A stretch of DNA of 64,000 nucleotides from a phage, in the sequence record PZ445431.1, one strand, 5' to 3'. The stretch's first letter is position 1. Every line of letters begins with the position of its first letter. The notes under the pieces were generated by a model. The model made no database searches and was not told the origin of the DNA. It saw nothing but the letters and a program-made list of their open reading frames with translations. The translations under genes and the position numbers were made by a program. Below, piece after piece: positions 25,274 through 64,000 of this stretch.

Positions 25274-25855
25274 ATGCACGGAATATCCTTACCCATTCCA
25301 GGGTTTGAGGAGTACTTAGTAAGTTTGGATGGGTTAGTATTTAGTATCAAATCAAACAAAATACTAACCCAAATAACCAGTAATTACGGATACTTATCTA
25401 TACGTCTCCATAAAAATGGTCAACAGAGAAATACCGGTGTACATAGGATTTTAGCATGTGCATTTAAGAAATTACCAAGTCTAGACTCTGAACTAGAAGT
25501 TGACCATATTAACACAGACATTACTTATTGGGGTCTTAATAACTTACAAGTGCTCACAAAAGAGCAGCATCTAGAAAAGACTTTAAAAGATAAAGGATTT
25601 AGTAAACTAAACCATGATAATTGTTGTAAGGATTGTGGTAAAGCTATTTCTTTAAAAGCTGAAAAATGTCAGGAGTGCTCTTCACATAAACCAAAAGATA
25701 TCTCTATAACTAAAGAAATAATCGAGGTTACAGTAAGAGAGCTAGGCTGGTCAGGTGCAGGGAGAAAGTTAAGTTATTCAGATAATGGGTTGCGTAAAAG
25801 ATACACTTCTTTAGGAGGCAATCCTAAAGAACTTAAAAAGTTAAAGGTACTATAG
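25274..25855 (+). CDS. HNH homing endonuclease (NUMOD-type N-terminus)
   Basis: IPGFEEYLVSLDGLVFS N-terminal motif and VDHINTD...NNLQVL HNH core; stop codon lies inside the acceptor stem of the next tRNA. Confidence 0.75.
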   Translation: MHGISLPIPGFEEYLVSLDGLVFSIKSNKILTQITSNYGYLSIRLHKNGQQRNTGVHRILACAFKKLPSLDSELEVDHINTDITYWGLNNLQVLTKEQHLEKTLKDKGFSKLNHDNCCKDCGKAISLKAEKCQECSSHKPKDISITKEIIEVTVRELGWSGAGRKLSYSDNGLRKRYTSLGGNPKELKKLKVL

Positions 25856-28253: not shown

Positions 28254-28769
28254 ATGCTAACACAACAAGAATTAAAATCCGTGTTGTTATATAAACCAGA
28301 TACTGGAGAGTTTTTCTGGAAATATAGATCTGATTTAGATAGTCAATGGAATAGTAAATATGCTGGAACTAGGGCAGGATTTATTAATGAACTAGGCTAT
28401 TGGAAGATAACTCTAGGAAATACTAGCTGGTTAGCACATCGTCTAGCATTCTTATACATGACTGGGGAAATACCAGATCTAATTGACCACAAGGATCAAG
28501 ATAAGTCCAATACTAAATGGGATAACTTACGAATAGCCACTGTATCACAGAATCAGGCTAATGCTAAATTAAGGGTAGATAATACCTCTGGGTACAAAAA
28601 TGTAACTTGGCATAAGCAAAGAAATAAGTGGAAAGTAGAAGTACGTAAAGATGGCAAACTCCATTATGGTGGACTTTTTACAGAACTAGATAAAGCTGTA
28701 AATAAAGCTAATAATCTTAGACGTGAGTTATTCGGGGAATTTGCAGTATATGAAGAGTTTATGGGGTAG
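28254..28769 (+). CDS. HNH homing endonuclease with AP2-type DNA-binding domain
   Basis: Same architecture as 6957..7472 (ELK..LYKPDTG.F.W, IDHKDQDKSNTKWDNLR, AP2-like SGYKNVTWHK); stop lies inside the next tRNA acceptor stem. Confidence 0.8.
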   Translation: MLTQQELKSVLLYKPDTGEFFWKYRSDLDSQWNSKYAGTRAGFINELGYWKITLGNTSWLAHRLAFLYMTGEIPDLIDHKDQDKSNTKWDNLRIATVSQNQANAKLRVDNTSGYKNVTWHKQRNKWKVEVRKDGKLHYGGLFTELDKAVNKANNLRRELFGEFAVYEEFMG

Positions 28770-39423: not shown

Positions 39424-39947
39424 TTACCCAAGAAAGATTGAAGGAGCTTCTAGAGTACAATCCAGATACAGGGATATTTATATGGAAGAGCCGAAAGATA
39501 GATAGAAGTGGTTTTAACAAGCAATTCGCAGGAAAAGTTGCTGGCAATCCTCAAAATAACGGTTATATCAATATTACTGTTGATTCCGAAGTTCATGGGG
39601 CACATAGATTAGCTTTTCTTTACATGGAAGGCTATATGCCTGCAAGGGTAGACCACGAAAACATGGTTAGGTCTGATAACAAATGGCTTAACCTACGAGA
39701 AGCTACAGTCTCTCAAAATGGTGCTAATGCGTTAAAGTATTCTAACAATAGTTCTGGATATAAGAACGTATACTGGACAAAGAAAACGTGTAAATGGCAA
39801 GTACAGGTTATGAAAGATGGTAAATCCTACTCGGGAGGATACTTCACAAACCTCAAAGATGCTGTAGAAACTGCCAATGAGTTAAGATTTGAATTATTTG
39901 GGGAATTTGCCCTATATGAACCATTTAAAGGAGATAAACATGAGTAA
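39420..39947 (+). CDS. HNH homing endonuclease with AP2-type DNA-binding domain
   Basis: GTG start; ERLKELLEYNPDTGIFIW, VDHENMVRSDNKWLNLR, AP2-like SGYKNVYWTKK; paralogue of 6957, 28254, 41576. Confidence 0.8.
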   Translation: MITQERLKELLEYNPDTGIFIWKSRKIDRSGFNKQFAGKVAGNPQNNGYINITVDSEVHGAHRLAFLYMEGYMPARVDHENMVRSDNKWLNLREATVSQNGANALKYSNNSSGYKNVYWTKKTCKWQVQVMKDGKSYSGGYFTNLKDAVETANELRFELFGEFALYEPFKGDKHE

Positions 39948-41576: not shown

Positions 41577-42088
41577 TGGCCGGTATTTCTCAGGAATACC
41601 TGAAGAGTAGACTAACCTATAATCCTGAAACATGGGAGTTTCGGTGGAAGCCTAACCCAAATGCTAGTAAAACATGGAATACTAGGTTTGCTGGTAAAGA
41701 AGCAGGTACTCTAAATAAAACTACCGGATATATCAATTTAACAATTGATGGGGTTAAGCATGGTGCACATAGAATGGCTTTCTTATACATGGAGGGCTAT
41801 TTACCTACTAAAGTGGATCACAAAGATACAATAAGAACAAATAATGCTTGGAGTAACCTTAGGGCTGCTGATAATGCTCAGAATACTTGGAATGCTGGTA
41901 TGAAAAGCTCCAATACTTCAGGATTTAAAGGTGTTTACTTAGATAAGCGTATAAATAAATATGTAGGTAGAGTTCGCTTTAGAGACAAAAGGTTCTCTAC
42001 TAAATATTATGAAAATGCTGAGGATGCAGCTAAAGAGTTGGAAATCCTTAGAGAACAGTTACATAAAGAATTTGCGAGGAATGAATAA
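41576..42088 (+). CDS. HNH homing endonuclease with AP2-type DNA-binding domain
   Basis: Same family as 6957, 28254, 39420; KVDHKDTIRTNNAWSNLR HNH core and AP2-like SGFKGVYLDK. Confidence 0.8.
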   Translation: MAGISQEYLKSRLTYNPETWEFRWKPNPNASKTWNTRFAGKEAGTLNKTTGYINLTIDGVKHGAHRMAFLYMEGYLPTKVDHKDTIRTNNAWSNLRAADNAQNTWNAGMKSSNTSGFKGVYLDKRINKYVGRVRFRDKRFSTKYYENAEDAAKELEILREQLHKEFARNE

Positions 42089-49960: not shown

Positions 49961-49979
49961 ACACATTTCTGGAAATTAC

Positions 49980-50580
49980 TGTCGGATTTGCACATTACAT
50001 TTCTAGAAATTTATGGTCGGATTTGCACATTGATAGGAGTCTCCAAAGTTTTTAGGAACACTGAAAATAGCAGCATTATTTCGGGCCGAAGGCCCATATT
50101 TGCCTGAGTTTTTAGAGCCACAGGAATTTTCACTTGTCAAGCGATTTTGCCCCATTTTGCTAATAAAATTTCGCTTTATCTCCCCTAATCTCAATTCTAG
50201 CCAAAACATCCCGCATTATCCTCAAAAATGCAGCAAACCGGTGCTAAAGCACCATCACCGCTGCTCCTTCCGTAGTTCCTCCCAAAATCTCATCGGATTC
50301 GCACTTCTCCCCAAACTCACACAATCACACACCCTCTCATCGAAGTCACAAAAATCTTGTCGGATTTGCACACCTTAACACTTGTCGGATTTGCACATAC
50401 TCTAGTAAACCCAGCTGGATTGCATCGCAGTTGCGGATTGCTGGAGTTTTTAGGAAAATTCATTGTCGGATTTGCACACTATAAAAATTTTTCGGGTAGG
50501 ATTTGCACATTACCAAAAATTGTCGGATTCGCACATACACGCCAGCACGTAACCCATGGAGCAAATGTCGGATTTGCACA
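49980..50580. repeat. iteron array: about 9 direct copies of TGTCGGATTTGCACA (minor variants)
   Basis: Copies at about 49980, 50016, 50291, 50359, 50383, 50464, 50496, 50521, 50566, all same orientation, irregular spacing. Confidence 0.9.
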
Positions 50581-50599
50581 AAAGCGCAGGGCAATTTGC

Positions 50600-50755
50600 C
50601 CTGCCTGCCGAAATGCGAATGATAATGAGAATGATTCGCATTTGAGAAGTTGAATGCGAATGAGAACAGTTATCATTTGACTACCGGAATACGAATGAGA
50701 ATGATTTGCATTTAGGAAGGGAAACGCTAATAATAATGAGAATGACTCGCATTTA
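50600..50755. repeat. second iteron family AATGAGAATGA(T/C)T(C/T)GCATTT (3 full copies plus partial), each embedding short AATGCGAAT/ATTCGCATT inverted motifs
   Basis: Copies at about 50621, 50693, 50733 plus GCGAATGAGAACAG at 50664. Confidence 0.85.
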
Positions 50756-50786
50756 CAAAGCGAAGTGAGAAACACTGTTATTTAAG

Positions 50787-50856
50787 TTATCCACAGGTTT
50801 ATTAACAGCACGATCTGACTTGACAAAATCCTAGTGATTTTGAGGCGTTATCCACA
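50787..50856 (+). promoter_or_regulatory. two perfect DnaA boxes (TTATCCACA) in direct orientation
   Basis: TTATCCACA at 50787-50795 and 50848-50856. Confidence 0.8.
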
Positions 50857-50894
50857 GACTTATCAACAGGTTATTCTACTGTATATTTATACAG
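50848..50894. repeat. left arm of about 47 bp inverted repeat (partner 54593-54639)
   Basis: TTATCCACAGACTTATCAACAGGTTATTCTACTGTATATTTATACAG versus reverse complement of 54593-54639, about 90% identical. Confidence 0.8.
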
Positions 50895-50926
50895 TATTCC
50901 TGCGTAGTGAATAACTCTAATATAGC

Positions 50927-50957
50927 TCTAAAACGCTCTCAAACGCGTTCTAACGCG
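50927..50957. repeat. direct repeat copy 1 (TCTAAAACGCTCTCAAACGCGTTCTAACGCG); partner at 55019-55050
   Basis: Same orientation, about 27/31 matches to 55019-55050. Confidence 0.8.
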
Positions 50958-51041
50958 TTTATTTTTGGGGGAGGTATTTTAATAAGGGGAAATTTGAGGA
51001 AGGCCAGAAAAGACGGGGCCGATAGTTGCGCCCCGTTATTA

Positions 51042-51236
51042 TTAGTCTGGTAGTCGATGTGTGATCTTTTCGCTTTCGCCGTAGGAGTCTACCAAATGTT
51101 GATAGTAACCATCGTTATCATAAATCACTTTATCATAATCGCCACGCTCCACCGCTTGCCGATTTTCCAGCGTATCAGGCACAAAGAAAGTATCAACGGT
51201 AACAGTAGTTTTAGTTACAACAATTTTATCACTCAT
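51042..51236 (-). CDS. hypothetical protein (64 aa), pre-early-region leftward operon
   Basis: ORF in leftward gene string. Confidence 0.45.
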   Translation of the reverse strand: MSDKIVVTKTTVTVDTFFVPDTLENRQAVERGDYDKVIYDNDGYYQHLVDSYGESEKITHRLPD

Positions 51237-51366
51237 AACGCCATTGCTCCTAGAATGAGAATGATTATCAATATCATTGTGAAGCCATTACCAAATCGTA
51301 AACGCTGGGAATGTTTCCCAGCGGTATTATTAGATTTATGGCTTTGTGTTTTTCGCCACCAGCTAT

Positions 51367-51579
51367 TCACGGTTTTAAATTCTCTATAGTTAATTTTGCG
51401 CGAATAGTGATTCCATATAATTCGCCTCCCTTGTTTCTTACATCAGGTAGCCAGTCCCACAATTCATGGTATCCGCTTAAAATTCCTAGCGATGCAAGAT
51501 TAGCAATAAAACCGGCTATAGTAACCGCTTCCAGTGAAATAGTTACACGATTATTAATAACTAAAGTAAACTTTTTCAT
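51367..51579 (-). CDS. hypothetical protein (70 aa)
   Basis: ATGA-coupled to upstream gene. Confidence 0.5.
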   Translation of the reverse strand: MKKFTLVINNRVTISLEAVTIAGFIANLASLGILSGYHELWDWLPDVRNKGGELYGITIRAKLTIENLKP

Positions 51580-51920
51580 TGCGCCACCTTTCGAAACGCT
51601 GTTTCGATACTTTCAGCGGTTGATTGAATATACGCGCCTTTCATAATTAGACGCTCCGTACATACTTTGCGGAAAATGAAAATGAATTCATTTTCATTTT
51701 CCGCTATTAACGCTTCCCCCATAACCTGAACGTCACAAGACCCAAAAGTTAAAAATTGAAACGCTAGTTCACGGGCGACAACGGCAGAAATTTTATAATG
51801 TGCTTTGCCCTCATAGATATTAACCACGCCTTTATAAACAGGGGAAAGCTGATTTAAATAGTTTGCTAATAATGCCGGACGGCAATTAGTTACAAAGCGA
51901 TTGCCCTCATAAATAACCAT
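51576..51920 (-). CDS. hypothetical protein (114 aa)
   Basis: ORF in leftward gene string. Confidence 0.55.
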   Translation of the reverse strand: MVIYEGNRFVTNCRPALLANYLNQLSPVYKGVVNIYEGKAHYKISAVVARELAFQFLTFGSCDVQVMGEALIAENENEFIFIFRKVCTERLIMKGAYIQSTAESIETAFRKVAQ

Positions 51921-52026
51921 TAAATGATCCTCGCATCACGGATAACCATAATCACTAGCGTGATCAACATTGCAGCACTAGACACGCCACAAACAAAAGT
52001 TAGCATTTTAACAATTGCCCCTTCCA

Positions 52027-52239
52027 TTATAACACCCCACGAAAAGCAGCGTAAAAAGTAGCAAAGTGTTTAACCGTTTCGGCTATCAAATTGCCGCGCT
52101 TGTCAAATTTCTTTTCTGTAACACGGAAAGCGTTTTTGTTGCGTGCTACATATTCTATTTTACAATCTGGACGCTCGAAGGTGTTAACATCCACCAGCTT
52201 AAAACCTTTAGAACGGGCAAGGGAAACATTTTTTAACAT
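52027..52239 (-). CDS. hypothetical basic protein (70 aa)
   Basis: ORF in leftward gene string. Confidence 0.5.
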   Translation of the reverse strand: MLKNVSLARSKGFKLVDVNTFERPDCKIEYVARNKNAFRVTEKKFDKRGNLIAETVKHFATFYAAFRGVL

Positions 52240-52245
52240 TTTTAT

Positions 52246-52395
52246 TCCCCTTTACCAGTCATACAGCCCAACAAGTAAGAAAACCCCGCGATACCTGCTC
52301 CAATAATAACCACGTGAACGCCGAAAGCTATTACAAACAGCGATAAAATAGCGCCCAAGATACTAGCCAGAATAGATCGAAAAATAACCATTTTA
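52246..52395 (-). CDS. possible small membrane protein (49 aa)
   Basis: Minus-strand ATG at 52395 followed by two hydrophobic segments; not in track. Confidence 0.35.
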
Positions 52396-52437
52396 TTAGC
52401 TCCTAGAAATTAGGGGATAATATATCCCCTTTAATAA

Positions 52438-52665
52438 TTACATTAAAACAATTTTTACCGCTTGCTTTTTGGTGCAGTGGTTAGTTTTCAATTCATCCAA
52501 CAAAAAGCCCGCCGTTTGCTGGTCAATCTTGTCATTGTCATAAAGTTCCTGAATGGTAACATAAGTTTTACCTATGCCGAACTCAGAAACCATAACGCTG
52601 ACAATAGCGGGAACGGATACCCATTCCATACCGTTAAAAATTGCAGAAGATGATGAATGTACCAT
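52438..52665 (-). CDS. hypothetical protein (75 aa)
   Basis: ORF in leftward gene string. Confidence 0.5.
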   Translation of the reverse strand: MVHSSSSAIFNGMEWVSVPAIVSVMVSEFGIGKTYVTIQELYDNDKIDQQTAGFLLDELKTNHCTKKQAVKIVLM

Positions 52666-52772
52666 TTTAACGCCTCCTAGAAATCAGGGAAAATTTTCAA
52701 TCCACCGTTTCGGTGTAAAGGCATTATAACAAAAAAGGCCACCATAATAGGCGACCTTTACAAAACTTTACA

Positions 52773-53294
52773 TTAGACTATTTCTAATGCTTCCACACCG
52801 AAACAGCGTTTTAGTTCTTTCTGTAAAACTGCATATTCATCCCAACGGGAATTATCAGGAATATAAACAAGCTGTTTTAATCGATTTGCATATAATAACG
52901 CCTTGTTACCAATTATTTCCGCGCCACCGTGTTTAATAATTAGTTTCATAACGGTATTAATAGGATCGCCGCCATTTACATAAGTACCGGACTTACTCAA
53001 TTGATAATGATAAATACTCGCATATACATTATCATTTTCAATCCATTCCCCTGTTTCTTCATCTTCTTCCCCATCGCTACCGAAACGAGAAGCATTATCA
53101 TATGCGTGTTCGTTTGCGAAAGCGTCCAGATCACAGCCAGCGGGAACAAAATGTTCCTCCGTCCAGCCCTCCCCGCAATAGCCAGTATGACAATCAACTA
53201 AAACGATCATATCGTGCTTAGCTTCATTCACACTTTCTAGTGAAAATCCATACTTGCAAACACTATCACGCTCAATAATTAATTTACTAAACAT
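52773..53294 (-). CDS. hypothetical acidic protein (173 aa)
   Basis: Cys/His cluster (CHTGYCGEGW...GC) followed by strongly acidic tract GSDGEEDEETGEWIEND. Confidence 0.6.
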   Translation of the reverse strand: MFSKLIIERDSVCKYGFSLESVNEAKHDMIVLVDCHTGYCGEGWTEEHFVPAGCDLDAFANEHAYDNASRFGSDGEEDEETGEWIENDNVYASIYHYQLSKSGTYVNGGDPINTVMKLIIKHGGAEIIGNKALLYANRLKQLVYIPDNSRWDEYAVLQKELKRCFGVEALEIV

Positions 53295-53347
53295 AATTAG
53301 TCTCCTAACTAAAAGGGAAAGCGGGGATTATTCCCCACTAGTAATTA

Positions 53348-54343
53348 TTATTCACTTTCGGTGTTAGTGGTAAAGGTAGAAATGTCAATACCTTTTACCA
53401 TTTCGTCGATCATTTCAGCAATATTGAAACTCTGTACCATTTCCAACATTGCCGCTTCCATTGCCGCGCCTGCTACCGCTTTCGCTTTCTGATTAGTCGG
53501 GGCGTACTGGTCAACTGCTACGCTTAACAGGTTAGCGATCACTATACGACCAATCGGCGTATCGATATAACCTTTAATCATAAACGGCGCTTTTTTCGCC
53601 GCTACTTTCGTGATTTGAGTTAATGCAATTTTACCCGCTTCCAGTTTTGCAGCATTTACAACAGCGGATTTATTAGCAGCAACGATAGAAGATACTTTAG
53701 TCATGATATTTCCTTTATTTTCAGTAGTTTGCGCATTTGCGCTTGAAGTTTGAGAGTTTACAGCCTGTTTTGCTACGTTGTCAACTGGTTTTAGTGTAAA
53801 TCCAGCGTTTGCAACGTTTGATTCATTCCCATACTCTAAATAATCGTTAGGGATCAACATGTTACCGCTAGCGCGTTCAAAACACAATACGCCAGTTGTT
53901 TCGATTGCGTCACTATCCGCACGTTTAATGGCGCTTGTCAATTCGCCCCAAATGCTAGACAGTAAATCTTCTACATCTCTGGAATTAATACCATTTACGC
54001 GAGTAGCGAAAACCATTTCTTTTTCTTGTACATTGTAACCACGGGCAATATAGCTTTTTTCGTCGTGACCTACAATGATAAAATCAATATCGCTTCCCCG
54101 CTGATTTCGTATGATGTGATAGTCACGGTTGTAAAGCACTAGAACGCGGCTAGGGTCTAGTAATAGCGTGAAATCATCGACTGAATAATGAGTATCATTA
54201 TTATCTAAAATATCATCGTGAATCTTTTCAACCATTGCCACCGTATGTTGTAGGCTTGCTGGACTTGATCCGTCTAGCAGGTTGCGCAAAATACCCTTAA
54301 TAATAGTGGCGTTTGCTGGTACTGCAATTCTTACAGTAGACAT
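53348..54343 (-). CDS. hypothetical protein (331 aa), first gene of leftward pre-early operon
   Basis: Longest ORF of the block; GGAGAC RBS; Ala/Lys-rich C-terminal half. Confidence 0.6.
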   Translation of the reverse strand: MSTVRIAVPANATIIKGILRNLLDGSSPASLQHTVAMVEKIHDDILDNNDTHYSVDDFTLLLDPSRVLVLYNRDYHIIRNQRGSDIDFIIVGHDEKSYIARGYNVQEKEMVFATRVNGINSRDVEDLLSSIWGELTSAIKRADSDAIETTGVLCFERASGNMLIPNDYLEYGNESNVANAGFTLKPVDNVAKQAVNSQTSSANAQTTENKGNIMTKVSSIVAANKSAVVNAAKLEAGKIALTQITKVAAKKAPFMIKGYIDTPIGRIVIANLLSVAVDQYAPTNQKAKAVAGAAMEAAMLEMVQSFNIAEMIDEMVKGIDISTFTTNTESE

Positions 54344-54592
54344 TTCTTTGTCTCCCTCGTTAATCGGTGAGTGAATGATATAGATAATTGTTCGCTATGG
54401 GCAAGAAAAAAGAAAAGGTTTTTTATTCCTTGCCTAACGCTTGTTTTTATGATACCCGCGTGTTTTCTATTTCTAGCTCTCTGTAAGCGTACACAAGGCT
54501 TTATTATAATAAGGGTAGCAGTGAGAAAACGCCGTGTAGCGTGTTCTAGACCTCTTAAATTTGATTGCGGTTGTTACTGCTACCATTCTACC

Positions 54593-54639
54593 CTGTATAT
54601 TTATACAGTAGGATAACCTGTATATAAGTCTGTGGATAA
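54593..54639. repeat. right arm of about 47 bp inverted repeat (partner 50848-50894), containing a DnaA box
   Basis: CTGTATATTTATACAGTAGGATAACCTGTATATAAGTCTGTGGATAA. Confidence 0.8.
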
Positions 54640-54688
54640 GTCGCCAAATCGTCGCCTATTACGTCAAGTTATTTTGTGCTGTGGATAA
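54631..54688 (-). promoter_or_regulatory. two perfect DnaA boxes (TGTGGATAA on + strand = TTATCCACA on - strand)
   Basis: TGTGGATAA at 54631-54639 and 54680-54688; partial boxes at about 54611 and 54965. Confidence 0.8.
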
Positions 54689-55018
54689 CTTTGGGGATAA
54701 GTTAAATGATAGTGGTTCTCACTTAGCCCGATAGTTTCTCATAGTTATTATTTCTCTTTAATTTATAAGTATATTATATAATATGAAATAGTTAGTTGGC
54801 TAATAGGTTTTTAGAGTATTAATAGTCTGCTAATAATAACGCATGTTACAATCCACCAGCGTGATTATCATCCTAGCGACTATTAGCGTGCTAATGACCT
54901 GATACACGTCCAGACTTATTTGTCAATGAAAAATAATAGCAGAAAATACTTTTTTGAAAAATCAAGTGGATAACTCATTAAATTTCATTTTTGCTTTTTG
55001 TATAAGTTATTAACAGGG

Positions 55019-55421: not shown

Positions 55422-55580
55422 ATGACAACAATATTTAACGATCATCCAGCTACCCACGACACGATCGAAAAAATCGAACAATGGGTAAAGACTGCAAATG
55501 AATACTATGCTAATCATTCGGAAGCGGTAATAATCTGCAATGATGGGAATGGTTTATATGCTTTGGAGGATCTCAAATGA
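55422..55580 (+). CDS. hypothetical small protein (52 aa) inside the IR-flanked cassette
   Basis: ATG after TATATAATATAAGGAATCGACGAT; ATGA-coupled to the next ORF; not in track. Confidence 0.45.
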   Translation: MTTIFNDHPATHDTIEKIEQWVKTANEYYANHSEAVIICNDGNGLYALEDLK

Positions 55581-55786
55581 AACAAACGCTTTTGATCACT
55601 GGCAAGCCTATCAAGTCACTTGATAGCAGAACAAAAAATTTGTTGATAGTAGCGCAAAAATCGGTAAAATACCGATTCAAGCAGTACAAGAAAGGAAGGC
55701 AGCAAGGTCTGGAAATGGTGTGGCGTAATATAATGATTGATTTATATAACTCCCATCAAATCGAAAAAAGTTTAAAAAACGCTTGA
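55577..55786 (+). CDS. hypothetical basic protein (69 aa) inside the IR-flanked cassette
   Basis: ORF track; Lys/Arg-rich. Confidence 0.5.
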   Translation: MKQTLLITGKPIKSLDSRTKNLLIVAQKSVKYRFKQYKKGRQQGLEMVWRNIMIDLYNSHQIEKSLKNA

Positions 55787-55794
55787 TACGCTAG

Positions 55795-55831
55795 CCGATA
55801 GGTTTTAAGATGTTCCCTAGTTTTTAAAGAG
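55795..55831. repeat. right arm of 37 bp near-perfect inverted repeat
   Basis: CCGATAGGTTTTAAGATGTTCCCTAGTTTTTAAAGAG. Confidence 0.9.
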
Positions 55832-56017
55832 CGATAACTTGATAAAATTTGACGGTCGGCACTTACCATAATGTGCCCCGCCCCCTAACTGGGATATAGC
55901 GGCCCGCGTGGAGTTCTTTAAATTTATTATACTGGCGAGCGGATTATAATCTAATAGCGTTTCAACGTATCGAGGCGCTATTGTGGAATAATCCCCCAAT
56001 AAACCGGAGTATTAAAA

Positions 56018-56269
56018 ATGCAAAACGTTATTACCGCGCCGAAAGTAGGTCAATCTGTTTTCATTCCTTTTGTAACTAAAACGGATGAATTAACCGGAAA
56101 AGCCGAACGTATTAAAGGTGTGGCGCTTGATCCTTTCGATAAAATCGAAGCGGTATACGCGGAAACGGAACGGAGTAACAACGGCAAGCCAATTTATAAC
56201 GTTCGCGTTAAATCCGGCGACGTTGTAAAGATCATTCAGAAAGATGATAAATGGCAAGCTATTAGCTAA
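56018..56269 (+). CDS. hypothetical protein (83 aa)
   Basis: ORF with GGAG RBS. Confidence 0.55.
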   Translation: MQNVITAPKVGQSVFIPFVTKTDELTGKAERIKGVALDPFDKIEAVYAETERSNNGKPIYNVRVKSGDVVKIIQKDDKWQAIS

Positions 56270-56368
56270 TTAGTGCTAACTTTATATTCCCCTGAAATAT
56301 GGGGAATATATGGATTAACATTAGTTAATCATAATCCCTTAATTAATAATTGAATGGAGTATTAAATT

Positions 56369-56785
56369 ATGTCTAACGTTAAAACCGAAAAAGCCGCAAA
56401 ATTCGCATGGAATGAAGAAAACACTGAAAAAGCCGTTTCTATGTATTCTGAAATGGTCGCTAAAAGCGGAATTGAATTTGCTAACACTGACGGCTTAAAA
56501 GAAATCGCCGCCGCCGTTGGCGCGGCTTCTCCCGTGTCTGTTCGCTCAAAATTGACCAGCGCAAAAGCCTACCAGAAAAGCGATAAACCTCGCAAAGTTG
56601 GCGGTGGTAGCTCAATCCGTAAAGCTCACTATGTGCGCGTCATTGCTAAACATGCCATTGATAGCGGCATTGTAAAAGACGCCGACGATCTGGCAAGTCT
56701 GGAAAGCGCAAAATTGGAAACGCTGGACGCCGTAGCGCAATTGTTAGGCGTAGCGGAGGAAGTAAAACAGGCCGCAGGCGAATAA
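56369..56785 (+). CDS. hypothetical protein (138 aa)
   Basis: ORF with GGAG RBS. Confidence 0.55.
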   Translation: MSNVKTEKAAKFAWNEENTEKAVSMYSEMVAKSGIEFANTDGLKEIAAAVGAASPVSVRSKLTSAKAYQKSDKPRKVGGGSSIRKAHYVRVIAKHAIDSGIVKDADDLASLESAKLETLDAVAQLLGVAEEVKQAAGE

Positions 56786-56834
56786 ATTTAATCAGTGGGG
56801 AATAATCCCCACTATCCCTTAAAGGAGAATAATT

Positions 56835-57059
56835 TTGATCTTTTATCCTAGCGAAGCGTTTATTTTGGGCTTATTTATAGTTGCCGCCGCTTTTATTCTG
56901 AATTATACGCGGTCAATTCTGGCAATAATCGGAATTAATAACGTTTACGCCGCAAATAATTTCCGCAAAAACGCGAATATTCAAAAATATATGTCAATCA
57001 TCTTTCTTACAATTGGCATTGTATTTGGCTTTTGTTCTAGTTTAACGCCGATTAATTAA
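56835..57059 (+). CDS. hypothetical membrane protein (74 aa)
   Basis: Two hydrophobic helices; AAGGAGAA RBS. Confidence 0.5.
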   Translation: MIFYPSEAFILGLFIVAAAFILNYTRSILAIIGINNVYAANNFRKNANIQKYMSIIFLTIGIVFGFCSSLTPIN

Positions 57060-57171
57060 ATGTTGCAAATTATAACGCCTTTAAAAGTCCTCACTTCAGG
57101 CAAGGCGTTATATTTGGCAATATTGCCAGCTTTAAAATGTTTTAAATCCCTTTAATGGAGTTACTTAACTT

Positions 57172-58836
57172 ATGAATATTTCCGCAGAAAAACAGTCTCA
57201 GATCAATAAACTTGCCGCCGACTTTAATTTCTACGGTAAGCGTTTACGCGCTACCAAACTTGAAGTTTGCGACGATATTTCAAAAGCTGTATATGATACG
57301 CCGAAACATTCAACGGCAATTTGTGACTGGTTGGAAGCAAATAAGCCAGCGAAACCGAAGGCAGCGAAAGCTGTAAAAGCCATTAAAAACGATGATCGCC
57401 CCGAAGCGGCGGGGATCGTTTCTAGCACGGTTGAGCAATGGGAAGTTAAATCCGGTCGCCGTTTTATTCTAACGTCGATTCAAAATAATACTTTCCCGCA
57501 CAAAAACTTTTTGAAAGCGCTTGAGCAATACGCTAGTTATTATGGCGCTGAATTGCTTGTTAGCAAATTCATTTACAACAAAAACGGATTTCAGAATGGG
57601 GAAGGCGGCGAAAAAATCAAATATGATCCCGCATTTGATAAATATATTTGTGAGAAAAACGTATTTTTAAATAATCGCCGCTTTGCTTTCATGGCTGAAA
57701 TTAACGTATTACCAACGGCAGATTATCCGCTTTCAGGATTCGCAGAAACTGCCACCGCTTTAAATATTGAAGGTCTGGCAATTGGTCACGCAAAAATTAC
57801 CGCTGAAAGTGTGCCAGCGTTAAAAGGTGAAGTAGTGCGCCGTATGTACTCCACCGGAACGGCTACGCTTAAAAACTACATTCAGCAGAAAGCAGGTCAA
57901 AAAGCTGAGGCGCTGCATAATTACGGCGCTTTGCTGGTAGAATTTGACGACGACGGCGAATTTTTTGTTCGCCAGCTTGAGACAATGGATGAAAGCGGGA
58001 TGTTTTATGATTTGAATATTTGCGCTATACCAACCGGATGTTTCAAAACATCTGATCATGTTTTAGGTTTGCAATATGGCGATATTCACGCCGAAAAATT
58101 AGATGATGATTGCGCTGTTGCATCATGGGTGGGCGAAAATAGCTTGCTTGATATTCTTAAACCAAAATATCAGTTTATCCATGATGTGCATGATTTTACA
58201 TCGCGTAACCATCATAATCGCGCCTCTGGTGTATTCCTAGCTAAACAGTACGCCGCCGGACGTGATAAAGTTATTGATGATCTTATCGATACTGGACGTG
58301 TATTAGAATCAATGGAGCGCGATTTTTCTCAAACAATCATCGTGGAATCCAATCATGATTTGGCGTTATCCCGTTGGCTTGACGATCGCAACGCTAATAT
58401 TAAAGACGATCCCGCAAACGCCGAACTGTATCACAGCCTAAACGCCGCTATTTATGCAGCTATTGCAAAACAAGATGATACCTTTAACGTATTGGATTAC
58501 GCGCTTAGAAACGTTGCAGGTTGCGAATTTAACGCTATTTTTCTGACTACTGACCAATCTTTCAAGATTGCAGGAATTGAATGCGGCGTACACGGTCACA
58601 ATGGCATTAACGGCAGTCGGGGCAATCCTAAGCAGTTTAAGAAACTTGGACGCCTCAACACTGGCCATACTCACACGGCGAGCATTTACGGTGGCGTGTA
58701 TACCGCTGGCGTTGCTGGTAGTCTCGATATGGGTTACAACGTGGGCGCGTCAAGCTGGACGCAAACGCATTTAATTACCTATGCAAACGGGCAACGTACT
58801 TTGATTGATTTCAAAAACGGTAAATTCTTTGCATAG
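57172..58836 (+). CDS. A1: A1-like pre-early protein (metallophosphoesterase-type)
   Basis: 554 aa with GDIHAE, ESNHD, GVHGHNG, NTGHTHT phosphoesterase-like motifs; size and position next to a dmp-like gene match T5 A1. Confidence 0.6.
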   Translation: MNISAEKQSQINKLAADFNFYGKRLRATKLEVCDDISKAVYDTPKHSTAICDWLEANKPAKPKAAKAVKAIKNDDRPEAAGIVSSTVEQWEVKSGRRFILTSIQNNTFPHKNFLKALEQYASYYGAELLVSKFIYNKNGFQNGEGGEKIKYDPAFDKYICEKNVFLNNRRFAFMAEINVLPTADYPLSGFAETATALNIEGLAIGHAKITAESVPALKGEVVRRMYSTGTATLKNYIQQKAGQKAEALHNYGALLVEFDDDGEFFVRQLETMDESGMFYDLNICAIPTGCFKTSDHVLGLQYGDIHAEKLDDDCAVASWVGENSLLDILKPKYQFIHDVHDFTSRNHHNRASGVFLAKQYAAGRDKVIDDLIDTGRVLESMERDFSQTIIVESNHDLALSRWLDDRNANIKDDPANAELYHSLNAAIYAAIAKQDDTFNVLDYALRNVAGCEFNAIFLTTDQSFKIAGIECGVHGHNGINGSRGNPKQFKKLGRLNTGHTHTASIYGGVYTAGVAGSLDMGYNVGASSWTQTHLITYANGQRTLIDFKNGKFFA

Positions 58837-58888
58837 TTAAATTTAATCGGCGGTTGAAATATACCGCCATTAATAAAAGGTTTATTAA

Positions 58889-59146
58889 ATGAATATTGTA
58901 TTACCTAAAACGCTGGATAAAAAGCAGTATATAACGCCGGATGATATGGAGTGCGGCAAGGTATACCAATTCGATTATATGTTGGCTAGTCCGACAAATA
59001 CAGGTTGTATTATTGCAGTTGATACCCGCGATAATGACGTATTAACGTTTAATGATTATTCTGACTTTATGGAATGGTTAGATGATCAAAGTATCACTAA
59101 TAATGGCGAATTAACGCCCTATCAATTAACGCTCACAATTAAATAG
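58889..59146 (+). CDS. hypothetical acidic protein (85 aa)
   Basis: ORF track. Confidence 0.5.
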   Translation: MNIVLPKTLDKKQYITPDDMECGKVYQFDYMLASPTNTGCIIAVDTRDNDVLTFNDYSDFMEWLDDQSITNNGELTPYQLTLTIK

Positions 59147-59184
59147 TTTAATCCCGTAAATATAAATAATCAGGAGTTATAAAC

Positions 59185-59577
59185 ATGAAACAACAAAATA
59201 TTCCTTTTGACGCTGCAAAATCTTCCATCGTTCTAGTTTATTCTAATGGTGAACGTTATCACGTCGAGGCGGGGCAAGTTAATTTTGATTTGCTGAATTA
59301 TAACGACGCTTTGCAGGTTACTACCTTTGCTTATGATACCGGCAAAGTGGCAAGCCATACGAAAGCAAAAGGCGTTTACGCTGATACTTTGACAGTGCAA
59401 ACAATTATTATTGATGCGCTTAAATCCGGTCTAGCGTTTGCAGTTGTTAAGCCGTGTCCGGTCTGCAATCCAGAAGCTAGCGCGATGGTTTACATTTGCG
59501 CGGGAATCCGTTCTAGTGTATCCGGTGAAGATCTTAGCTTTATTGGTGACGCGCTAGCGTACGGCCTCACTAATTAA
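59185..59577 (+). CDS. hypothetical pre-early protein (130 aa), possible A2 counterpart
   Basis: Position downstream of A1 and size; no motif-level support. Confidence 0.3.
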   Translation: MKQQNIPFDAAKSSIVLVYSNGERYHVEAGQVNFDLLNYNDALQVTTFAYDTGKVASHTKAKGVYADTLTVQTIIIDALKSGLAFAVVKPCPVCNPEASAMVYICAGIRSSVSGEDLSFIGDALAYGLTN

Positions 59578-59665
59578 TAGTTAATTGAACATTGCCAGCT
59601 AATCTAATATAATTAGCTGGCAAGATTGAATTAACCCTAAACCCCTTAAATGGAGAATGTAGCAA

Positions 59666-60400
59666 ATGAATCAAGTTAATATGAATATTACCCGCGCTTT
59701 CCCGCATATTTCCCGCGTTATGATTTGGGATTTAGACGGGACAATCATTAATTCAATGCACCGTGTAGCGCCTTGTTTTGATGATAACGGAAATTTAAAT
59801 TTAAATAAGTATTCCCGCGAAGCCTGCAAACATGATTTAATTATGCAGGATTCTTTATTGCCGTTGGTTGAATATATGCGCCAATGTATGAATGATGCAA
59901 ATACTTTAAATATTATTTGTACCGCGCGCCTTATGTCTAAAAGCGATTACTTTTATTTGCGTAAACAAGGCTTGCGAGGGCGCGGAAATAGCAATATCCG
60001 CGTATTCTCCCGCGATACATTACACAAATACTTTGAAGCGGATAAGGTTAGCGAAATATACCACAGCAAAGACGCTGTATACAAAAGCTATTACTTTGAA
60101 CTATTTAAACAGCTATATCCGAACGCTGATTTTACGATGATTGATGATCATAAAGGCGTATTATCGGCGGCGGCAAGTGCTGGATTTAAAACGTTGGATG
60201 CTCAAGCCGTTAACGATATCCTATCAATCGGCGTAACATTGATCGGTGAAACCTTTATTGATGAATCGCTTGATGATGATAACGATTATCAATTCCTAGC
60301 CGAACGTTTAAAAATGTGTTGGGAAGGTATGACCGAGGAAGAACGCGCGGAATATAGTACCACTCCGCAACAATTCATTGATAAATTAAAAGTTGCCTAA
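59666..60400 (+). CDS. dmp: 5'-deoxyribonucleotidase (HAD-superfamily phosphatase), Dmp-like
   Basis: 244 aa with HAD motif I MIWDLDGTIIN; size and position match T5 dmp. Confidence 0.65.
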   Translation: MNQVNMNITRAFPHISRVMIWDLDGTIINSMHRVAPCFDDNGNLNLNKYSREACKHDLIMQDSLLPLVEYMRQCMNDANTLNIICTARLMSKSDYFYLRKQGLRGRGNSNIRVFSRDTLHKYFEADKVSEIYHSKDAVYKSYYFELFKQLYPNADFTMIDDHKGVLSAAASAGFKTLDAQAVNDILSIGVTLIGETFIDESLDDDNDYQFLAERLKMCWEGMTEEERAEYSTTPQQFIDKLKVA

Positions 60401-63518: not shown

Positions 63519-64000
63519 ATGGCAAATGATGTATTAGTTCCCGATCTCATGTCTCCCGAAGGCATGGATGTTATTGAAGCCTATTTACAGTGCGGTAGTG
63601 ATGTTCCTGCCGCCGCTCGTAGTCTTGGAATGTCCGAGATTGCATTCCGTGATATAATGAATCGTGGGGAAGTTAAAAACTATCTCAACGATATCTTTAT
63701 GGAAAGTGGCTTCCGTAATCGTGACCGCTTATTCGGAGTTCTTGACGAAGTTATCAAGCGTAAGCTGGAAGAACTTGAAGAAACTGGCATGGGTTCTGAC
63801 CAGGATATCATGGATATTCTCTGGAAGGCGCACAAGATGAAGATGGAAGAAATGAAAATGATGGTAGAACTGGAGAAAGTGAAGGCAGCAGCCCGTACTC
63901 CGGCTAACCAGACTAATATTCAGAATAATATTATTGCTGGAAGTGGTGACGAAAACTATATGAATCTTATTACCGCTCTAGCAGGAGGAGGTAAGAGATA
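63519..64000 (+). CDS. putative terminase small subunit-like protein, partial (3' end beyond window)
   Basis: AGGAGGA RBS; N-terminal helix-turn-helix-like segment ([21 protein letters not shown]) and charged coiled-coil region. Confidence 0.4.

Follow-up and report, generated by a model that had tools for sequence, protein, structure and literature searches.

A leftward gene block of Escherichia phage TrudiRoth as the likely counterpart of the T5.011-T5.017 pre-early unit

The T5 unit and the TrudiRoth gene block

In phage T5, the genes 011-017 (NC_005859, 6495-9157) lie between the divergent promoters and the injection stop signal (iss), and several of their products have been characterised. 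First, toxicity has been shown for T5 008, 011 and 015, the last of which is an Ung-dependent nickase that binds host Ung, nicks AP sites and owes its toxicity to ung (Mahata et al. 2021, PMC8201957). Second, toxicity with nucleoid or lysis phenotypes was described for 011, 013 and 015, gp013 being membrane-lytic on expression (bioRxiv 10.64898/2026.04.02.716235), and the disorganisation of the nucleoid has been ascribed to gp011 (PMC8201957; bioRxiv 10.64898/2026.04.02.716235). T5.012 is non-toxic in T5. Third, the T5.011 promoter has reportedly been characterised by experiment, and T5 deleted for hegG-017 is still viable in the laboratory (bioRxiv 10.64898/2026.04.02.716235). Our search of the literature on DUF7566, on T5.012, 013, 014, 016 and 017 and on anti-defence roles of first-step-transfer (FST) genes returned nothing beyond the papers cited herein.

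The window analysed in the present study, i.e. the whole stretch of 64,000 nucleotides, is 100% identical to Escherichia phage TrudiRoth (Bas30, genus Epseptimavirus). The identity of the phage was determined directly, as were its ORFs and their homology, the conservation of promoter and terminator, the architecture of the domains and the selection pattern. Positions 51042-54343 of the minus strand hold ten co-oriented ORFs at a coding density of 93.7%, listed here from the promoter-proximal end:

53348-54343, minus strand: p331, 331 aa; homologue of T5 gp011 (57% identity), DUF7566
52773-53294, minus strand: p173, 173 aa; acidic, pI 4.66
52438-52665, minus strand: p75, 75 aa; homologue of T5.012 (69% identity)
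52242-52391, minus strand: p49, 49 aa; homologue of T5.013 (62% identity), two transmembrane segments
52027-52239, minus strand: p70a, 70 aa; homologue of T5.014 (94% identity), basic, pI 10.1
51920-52027, minus strand: p35, 35 aa; single-span membrane peptide without a T5 counterpart
51576-51920, minus strand: p114, 114 aa; homologue of T5.015 (89% identity), Ung-dependent AP-site nickase family by sequence
51367-51579, minus strand: p70b, 70 aa; without a T5 counterpart
51233-51370, minus strand: p45, 45 aa; very basic, C-terminal transmembrane segment, GTG start
51042-51236, minus strand: p64, 64 aa; homologue of T5.017 (80% identity), acidic, pI 4.6

The first-pass annotation had reported eight leftward ORFs, all of which were recovered at the same sizes and places, but the real total is ten, as p35 and p45 fill two gaps between them. 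Both small ORFs are in the public TrudiRoth record, whereas p64 is not annotated there; repeats are not marked in that record either. A GGAG-like ribosome-binding site precedes most ORFs, p45 being without one; neighbours among the distal six genes either touch or share 1-4 nt, and the cumulative GC skew drops steadily over the block with a turning point at approximately 54300, as expected for leftward coding.

The comparison with T5 revealed both likenesses and differences. Six TrudiRoth genes correspond to T5 genes in the same order, with protein identities of 57-94%. In contrast, four of the ten ORFs (p173, p35, p70b and p45) have no T5 counterpart: the 173-aa gene is found between 011 and the terminator, the 35-aa membrane ORF lies between 014 and 015, and p70b and p45 occupy the place of T5.016, to which they are unrelated. 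A homologue of p45 (45% identity) was found in a distant T5-like contig (L005). Furthermore, hegG is missing from the TrudiRoth control region. Taken together, the block is very likely the right-hand pre-early (first-step-transfer) unit, the counterpart of T5.011-T5.017, with products that act as independent accessory host-takeover effectors. The placement in the pre-early region of a T5-like phage, with a likely function in host takeover, had been suggested from the sequence before, and homology to T5.011-T5.017 lends it support. The same homology is at odds with the description of the block as unknown proteins, because phenotypes or activities of 011, 013 and 015 have been published. In other words, the block itself is no discovery: it is the pre-early accessory operon of T5, the toxic members of which (011, 013 and 015) are already in the literature.

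Predicted transcription signals and the probable independence of the genes

The leftward genes are separated from a rightward string by a divergent, AT-rich control region of approximately 890 bp with 30-39% GC. A control region shared with the rightward A1/dmp string had been proposed, and the hdi-A2-A1-dmp arrangement was confirmed: homologues of hdi, T5.007, A2, A1 and dmp are encoded on the plus strand at 55577-60397, and A2, A1 and a dNMP phosphatase are annotated on this opposite strand. The following signals were located in and around the unit:

54375-54404, minus strand: putative sigma-70 promoter of the leftward unit from a promoter scan (-35 TTGCCC, 18-nt spacer, -10 TATCAT)
53320-53339, minus strand: terminator-like hairpin directly 3' of p331 (-15.4 kcal/mol, weak U tail)
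52734-52759, minus strand: Rho-independent terminator 3' of p173 (z=-3.65)
52723-52731, minus strand: possible extended -10 element TGTTATAAT, just past the Rho-independent terminator and conserved in T5
49973-50881, unstranded: non-coding stretch rich in repeats, downstream of the unit and equivalent to the T5 iss

The predicted promoter is preceded by an A-rich tract and aligns with the annotated T5.011 promoter, the -35, the -10 and the leader being almost invariant between the two sequences. The terminator after p173 is homologous to the terminator annotated after T5.011, and the sequences are nearly identical. This conserved terminator probably divides the unit in two, with p331 and p173 on the promoter-proximal side and eight small genes on the distal side, for which TGTTATAAT is a possible restart promoter. 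The single operon of the first-pass annotation holds as a co-oriented string, but transcription may not run through it without a break, in view of the terminator-like hairpins after p331 and p173. In the downstream repeat region, TGTCGGATTTGCACA occurs 8 times, accompanied by four repeats of 35-41 bp; the DnaA box TTATCCACA is present twice as an exact match, and a hairpin resembling a terminator lies at 50604-50586.

The gene arrangement bears on the idea that the proteins work as a single system. Packing is tight, the ORFs share one orientation and some of them overlap, ATGA junctions of the translational-coupling type occur in the distal six, and the genes for DUF7566 and for p173-family proteins remain close even in very distant relatives; these features would be consistent with a single co-functioning machine of interdependent parts. 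However, gene content varies among close relatives, in which p173, p35, p70b, p45 and T5.016 come and go, p173 is present or absent irrespective of the type of 011 head, and terminators subdivide the leftward unit. Moreover, each of 011, 013 and 015 is toxic by itself, and host Ung is the only partner that 015 requires. A single interdependent machine is highly improbable given these results, and the reading of independent effectors is preferred herein.

Timing, toxicity and biochemical activities are transferred from the experiments with T5, and we infer the following course of events for independent effectors. Reading of the unit would proceed leftward in the direction of the injection-stop repeats, and the hdi-A2-A1-dmp unit would be read the opposite way. 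The gp011-like p331 would disturb nucleoid organisation, and the gp015-like p114 would bind host Ung and nick the abasic sites that Ung makes in dUMP-containing DNA. The gp013-like p49 would act on the membrane, and so, probably, would p35 and p45. The conserved p75, p70a and p64 would be non-toxic, and p173, p35, p70b and p45 would be extras beyond the T5 set.

The putative nickase gene, its neighbour and the two modules of p331

The sequence of p114 places it in the Ung-dependent AP-site nickase family. It is equal in length to T5.015 (114 aa), it has a precomputed Pfam match to PF26847 (Phage_T5_AP_Endonuclease), and its UniRef name is 'DNA-(apurinic or apyrimidinic site) endonuclease'. In contrast, the functional name in NCBI and PHROGs sits on the neighbouring 70-aa protein, p70a, which is labelled as an Ung-dependent endonuclease (phrog_4227). 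This label is probably an off-by-one annotation error that has spread through RefSeq and PHROGs. Strong purifying selection was observed on p114 and also on p70a, which differs from T5.014 by 20 synonymous and 4 non-synonymous codons.

The largest protein, p331, matches DUF7566 (PF24450) over residues 1-331 (E=8.1e-134; 447 bits, the cutoff being 27). An alpha/beta N-terminal head (residues 1-185) is followed by a disordered Q/S/T/N-rich linker (189-218) and a helical C-terminal module (214-329). The two ends differ sharply in their conservation: the head is fast-evolving, with 35% identity to the head of T5 gp011, whereas the C-terminal module is approximately 95% identical to that of T5, the final 120 residues being almost identical. 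At the nucleotide level, the C-terminal module is 86% identical, and its codon changes, 37 of them synonymous and 7 non-synonymous, indicate strong purifying selection; on the same figures, recent recombination was rejected as the source of the near-identity between T5 and TrudiRoth. [quoted passage not shown]

DUF7566 as defined lumps two modules together. Among 149 diverse representatives, the T5-type head was observed in only 31 and a HIRAN head in 29, and the number of further types of head is at least 46; in uncultured phages, the C-terminal module is fused to HIRAN or to many other heads. That the T5-type head might be a diverged HIRAN domain was rejected with hhalign (probability 0.1%). 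Between Tequintavirus and Epseptimavirus, the heads of gp011 are 35% identical. The T5 authors reportedly wrote that gp011/DUF7566 "resists functional predictions", and a widespread C-terminal module that is repeatedly joined to the DNA-end-binding HIRAN offers a handle for work on the mechanism.

Many UniRef and NCBI entries for relatives of p331 carry the name of a methyltransferase, from which p331 could be taken for a DNA N6-adenine methyltransferase. However, the SAM-binding motif I and the catalytic motif IV (D/N/S-P-P-Y/F/W) are both absent from p331, methyltransferase families in Pfam and NCBIfam gave no matches, and no match to a Rossmann-type methyltransferase fold was observed. The name is therefore almost certainly wrong for this protein.

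A further proposal, speculative and in our judgement improbable, extends the two-module architecture to the biology of the genus. DUF7566 proteins would be modular early effectors, in which the C-terminal module docks on a conserved cellular target and the swapped head provides the activity or DNA binding, and the genus-specific head, p173 or both would be the long-sought pre-early factor that makes some T5-like phages more sensitive than others to nuclease-based defence.

p173 and the question of anti-defence

The suggestion that the block might house an anti-defence system had been argued from the restriction insensitivity of T5. This argument is weak, because insensitivity is a trait of Tequintavirus, and Epseptimaviruses are generally restriction-sensitive although they share most of the genes (PMC8594841, PMC10644984); genes shared with T5 are thus unable to account for the Tequintavirus-specific trait. 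None of the proteins gave a confident match to a virion or housekeeping protein, an outcome that the first-pass annotation had named as counting against its proposal, so that p173, p75, p70a, p70b and p64 may still have an anti-defence role. Scans of the ten proteins against Pfam, PHROGs, NCBIfam and PADLOC returned DUF7566, PHROGs without a function and the disputed phrog_4227 label, but nothing else. No known component of anti-phage defence or of a toxin-antitoxin system was recognised: PADLOC gave zero matches, and the single NCBIfam match, of p75 to the RatA family, was far under the threshold (14 bits, the cutoff being 258). Profile or sequence searches of the PDB with p173, p331, p114 and p70a found nothing.

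Among the members of the block, the acidic p173 is the best candidate for an anti-defence factor. Its family is absent from T5, and its relatives are confined to T5-like phages (339 phage records). Since T5 lacks p173, the protein has escaped every systematic screen of T5 pre-early genes and lies outside all T5 studies. The predicted fold is confident and unlike any solved structure, no relative having been found in the PDB, and the position of an acidic loop is conserved across the family. In its small size, net acidity, conserved acidic loop and presumed early expression, p173 may resemble T7 Ocr, ArdA and Ugi. However, a comparison with DNA mimics of the Ocr/ArdA type and with other solved inhibitors gave no match in fold, p173 does not show the combination of an Ocr- or ArdA-related fold or sequence with an extended, strongly acidic surface, and its acidity is modest.

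It is rather unlikely, on balance, that the unstudied members include a dedicated anti-defence factor, for example an inhibitor of a restriction enzyme, of RecBCD or of another nuclease-based system. In addition to the characters of p173, several observations are consistent with such a factor: by analogy with T5, the genes of the block would be switched on while most of the phage DNA is still outside the cell, and Epseptimaviruses resist Eco29kI and Esp1396I despite the presence of sites, as reported in a study of BF23, which implies some anti-restriction function. Set against these are the general restriction sensitivity of the genus and the family matches, which consist of DUFs and PHROGs without function. 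Candidate alternatives to p173 are p70a, p64 and p75. Of these, p70a is under strong purifying selection despite its lack of toxicity and despite being expendable in laboratory culture.

Whatever its function, p173 is a newly flagged family that is common in T5-like phages and missing from the T5 reference. The gene occupies a variable slot, and co-variation of p173 with the gp011 head type was rejected, as ECOP18 carries a T5-type head together with p173.

Identity and layout of the block

The stretch 50800-54700 was a 100% match to TrudiRoth (Bas30; Demerecviridae, Markadamsvirinae, Epseptimavirus) in a megablast search against phage genomes, and 464 further T5-like records also matched it. 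In the TrudiRoth record, the leftward block is annotated as nine hypothetical proteins, with A2, A1 and the dNMP phosphatase downstream on the opposite strand. The first-pass annotation was correct in placing the block in a T5-type pre-early region. The eight ORFs described there were all recovered on the minus strand with the same sizes and coordinates, and the apparent gaps hold two more small ORFs (35 and 45 aa), both annotated in the TrudiRoth record.

ORFs of the block, named by length, with identity to T5 counterparts (tblastn)
53348-54343, minus, p331: T5.011, 57%
52773-53294, minus, p173: no T5 counterpart
52438-52665, minus, p75: T5.012, 69%
52242-52391, minus, p49: T5.013, 62%; two transmembrane segments
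52027-52239, minus, p70a: T5.014, 94%
51920-52027, minus, p35: no T5 counterpart; one transmembrane segment
51576-51920, minus, p114: T5.015, 89%
51367-51579, minus, p70b: no T5 counterpart
51233-51370, minus, p45: no T5 counterpart; one C-terminal transmembrane segment
51042-51236, minus, p64: T5.017, 80%

These ORFs make up a genuine gene string rather than arising by chance. The coding share of the block is 93.7%, the last six genes lie end to end or with overlaps of 1-4 nt, a GGAG-type ribosome-binding site precedes most ORFs (the exception being the GTG-start p45, a homologue of which, 45% identical, lies on a very distant T5-like contig), and the cumulative GC skew drops monotonically over the block with a turning point at its upstream end. 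The p64 gene (phrog_6973) is unannotated in the TrudiRoth record and annotated in related phages.

Correspondence to the T5 pre-early operon

The block is the T5 pre-early right-hand operon in its Epseptimavirus form and therefore of a known kind. Thirteen pre-early T5 genes have been cloned, of which 008, 011 and 015 were toxic, and the 015 product was shown to bind Ung and nick the abasic sites that Ung creates (Mahata et al., PMC8201957). In another report, the toxic genes were 011, 013 and 015, with uneven nucleoids, lysis and elongated cells, respectively; a T5 mutant without hegG-017 was viable, and 011 "resists functional predictions" (Annor et al., bioRxiv 10.64898/2026.04.02.716235). 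By analogy with these counterparts, namely their toxicity and the viable deletion, we regard the block as a set of accessory host-takeover genes, presumably dispensable in the laboratory. The earlier observation stood, and so did the T5-type setting; the proposal of an undescribed system did not, since both studies had already described the T5 counterparts. The accompanying rationale, restriction insensitivity, proved weak, because restriction resistance is a Tequintavirus-only feature and Epseptimaviruses are sensitive (Maffei et al., PMC8594841), yet TrudiRoth has most of these genes in common with T5. The BF23 study confirmed the genus difference and proposed exploiting it to find the Tequintavirus factor; it also reported that Epseptimaviruses resist Eco29kI and Esp1396I, an unexplained finding (PMC10644984) that leaves room for some anti-restriction activity in this genus. 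Three leads are worth following: the mis-annotated nickase, the modular DUF7566 family of p331 and the p173 family.

The databases disagree on the nickase. In RefSeq and PHROGs (phrog_4227), it is the 70-aa protein (T5.014, p70a) that bears the Ung-dependent endonuclease name, whereas in UniRef the cluster of the 114-aa T5.015 is called "DNA-(apurinic or apyrimidinic site) endonuclease" and Pfam PF26847 (Phage_T5_AP_Endonuclease) matches the TrudiRoth 114-aa product. Both experimental papers follow the NC_005859 locus-tag numbering, in which 008 is hdi, overlapping promoter P-H22, and the protein with two transmembrane segments is 013. From these matches, we conclude that p114 is the predicted nickase homologue. 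The label on p70a is probably an off-by-one error since propagated to many phage genomes; the 70-aa protein is labelled "ORF015" in another T5 record (Q5DMS9_BPT5), which would account for such a transfer.

The DUF7566 and p173 families

The p331 product is a full-length DUF7566 protein. Searching 1.84 billion representatives exhaustively with phmmer revealed 676 relatives, most sharing the helical C-terminal module (C module) alone. Among the best 149 of these, 31 carried the T5-type N-terminal head, 29 a HIRAN head and 70 other heads from at least 46 unrelated groups, and 19 were short or stand-alone. One HIRAN fusion lies on a phage-like contig, surrounded by small early-type genes. That the T5-type head is a diverged HIRAN domain was ruled out (hhalign probability 0.1%). 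Compared with T5, the TrudiRoth head is 35% identical and the last ~120 residues about 95%. The C module has 86% nucleotide identity, and its codon differences (37 synonymous versus 7 non-synonymous) rule out recent exchange of the module between the two phages; it is under strong purifying selection. As a working model, we propose that a conserved docking or oligomerisation module would be joined to an exchangeable, often DNA-binding head, which would fit the nucleoid phenotype of gp011 (the T5.011 product). Many UniRef and NCBI entries label DUF7566 proteins "DNA N-6-adenine methyltransferase", a label unsupported by motifs, family match or fold match; in one phage, this name is attached to a 48-aa membrane peptide clustering with p49.

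The p173 protein matched no Pfam family, and its relatives form only 21 clusters among 5.8 billion clustered proteins, all in T5-like contexts. Two very distant relatives also carry the p173 gene in the same operon as a DUF7566 gene, adjoining it or one gene off. Homologues were found by tblastn in 339 phage records, including the Tequintaviruses ECOP18 and T5_ev212 and, at ~33% identity, Klebsiella Sugarland-like phages; thus, T5 is the exception in being without p173. Presence of p173 did not track the gp011 head type, and a tie between the two was rejected. The predicted model is a confident alpha/beta fold (AF2, 13-sequence alignment; pLDDT 85.7, pTM 0.80), and the family invariants are a TGYCG motif, a GG pair and an acidic loop, the latter replaced by a four-cysteine zinc ribbon in some members. 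Our best guess, held with low confidence, is that p173 might be an inhibitor of a host protein.

Control signals and flanking sequences

Control features in and around the block
54404 (-35 TTGCCC) to 54375 (end of -10 TATCAT), minus: promoter upstream of p331
52759-52734: terminator-like hairpin after p173; 52723-52759 with the TGTTATAAT that follows
49973-50881: non-coding repeat field downstream of p64, with eight copies of TGTCGGATTTGCACA, four 35-41-bp repeats and two exact DnaA boxes
~50787 and ~50848: the DnaA boxes, TTATCCACA

The promoter is conserved nearly base for base with the annotated T5.011 promoter, which has been experimentally characterised according to the T5 preprint (bioRxiv 10.64898/2026.04.02.716235). 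Two terminator-like hairpins are internal to the unit; the one after p173 is the homologue of the annotated T5 terminator after gene 011, and directly 3' of it, in TrudiRoth and T5 alike, lies TGTTATAAT, an extended -10 consensus. In TrudiRoth, p331 and p173 therefore probably make up the promoter-proximal segment, and the eight distal genes would need read-through or restart; the -10 consensus next to the terminator points to restart.

Upstream, a region of ~890 bp with 30-39% GC extends to the first rightward ORF, followed on the plus strand by homologues of T5.009, hdi (77%), T5.007, A2 (86%), A1 (89%), T5.002 and dmp (91%). Compared with T5, hegG, T5.003 and T5.016 are absent from this pre-early region. 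Although hegG proper is missing from the control region, weak homologues of HegG, the T5 HNH homing endonuclease (27-35% identity), occur elsewhere in the window (25379-25573, 28350-28568, 39528-39776 and 41639-41893). Between A2 and A1, a small membrane protein (56835-57056) is 32% identical to T5.005, against 86-89% for its neighbours, and is another sharply genus-divergent pre-early protein.

The repeat field corresponds to the T5 injection stop signal and is likely the injection stop signal of this phage. The annotated 50-aa CDS bas30_0180 (~50003-50155) sits inside it, overlaps repeats and may be spurious. Finally, the window's terminal 482 bases (63519-64000) run on past the point where the 114,488-bp linear public record stops, with no second copy in the window or in that record's last 21.7 kb; they are presumably the start of the record, so the window appears to derive from a circularly joined copy.
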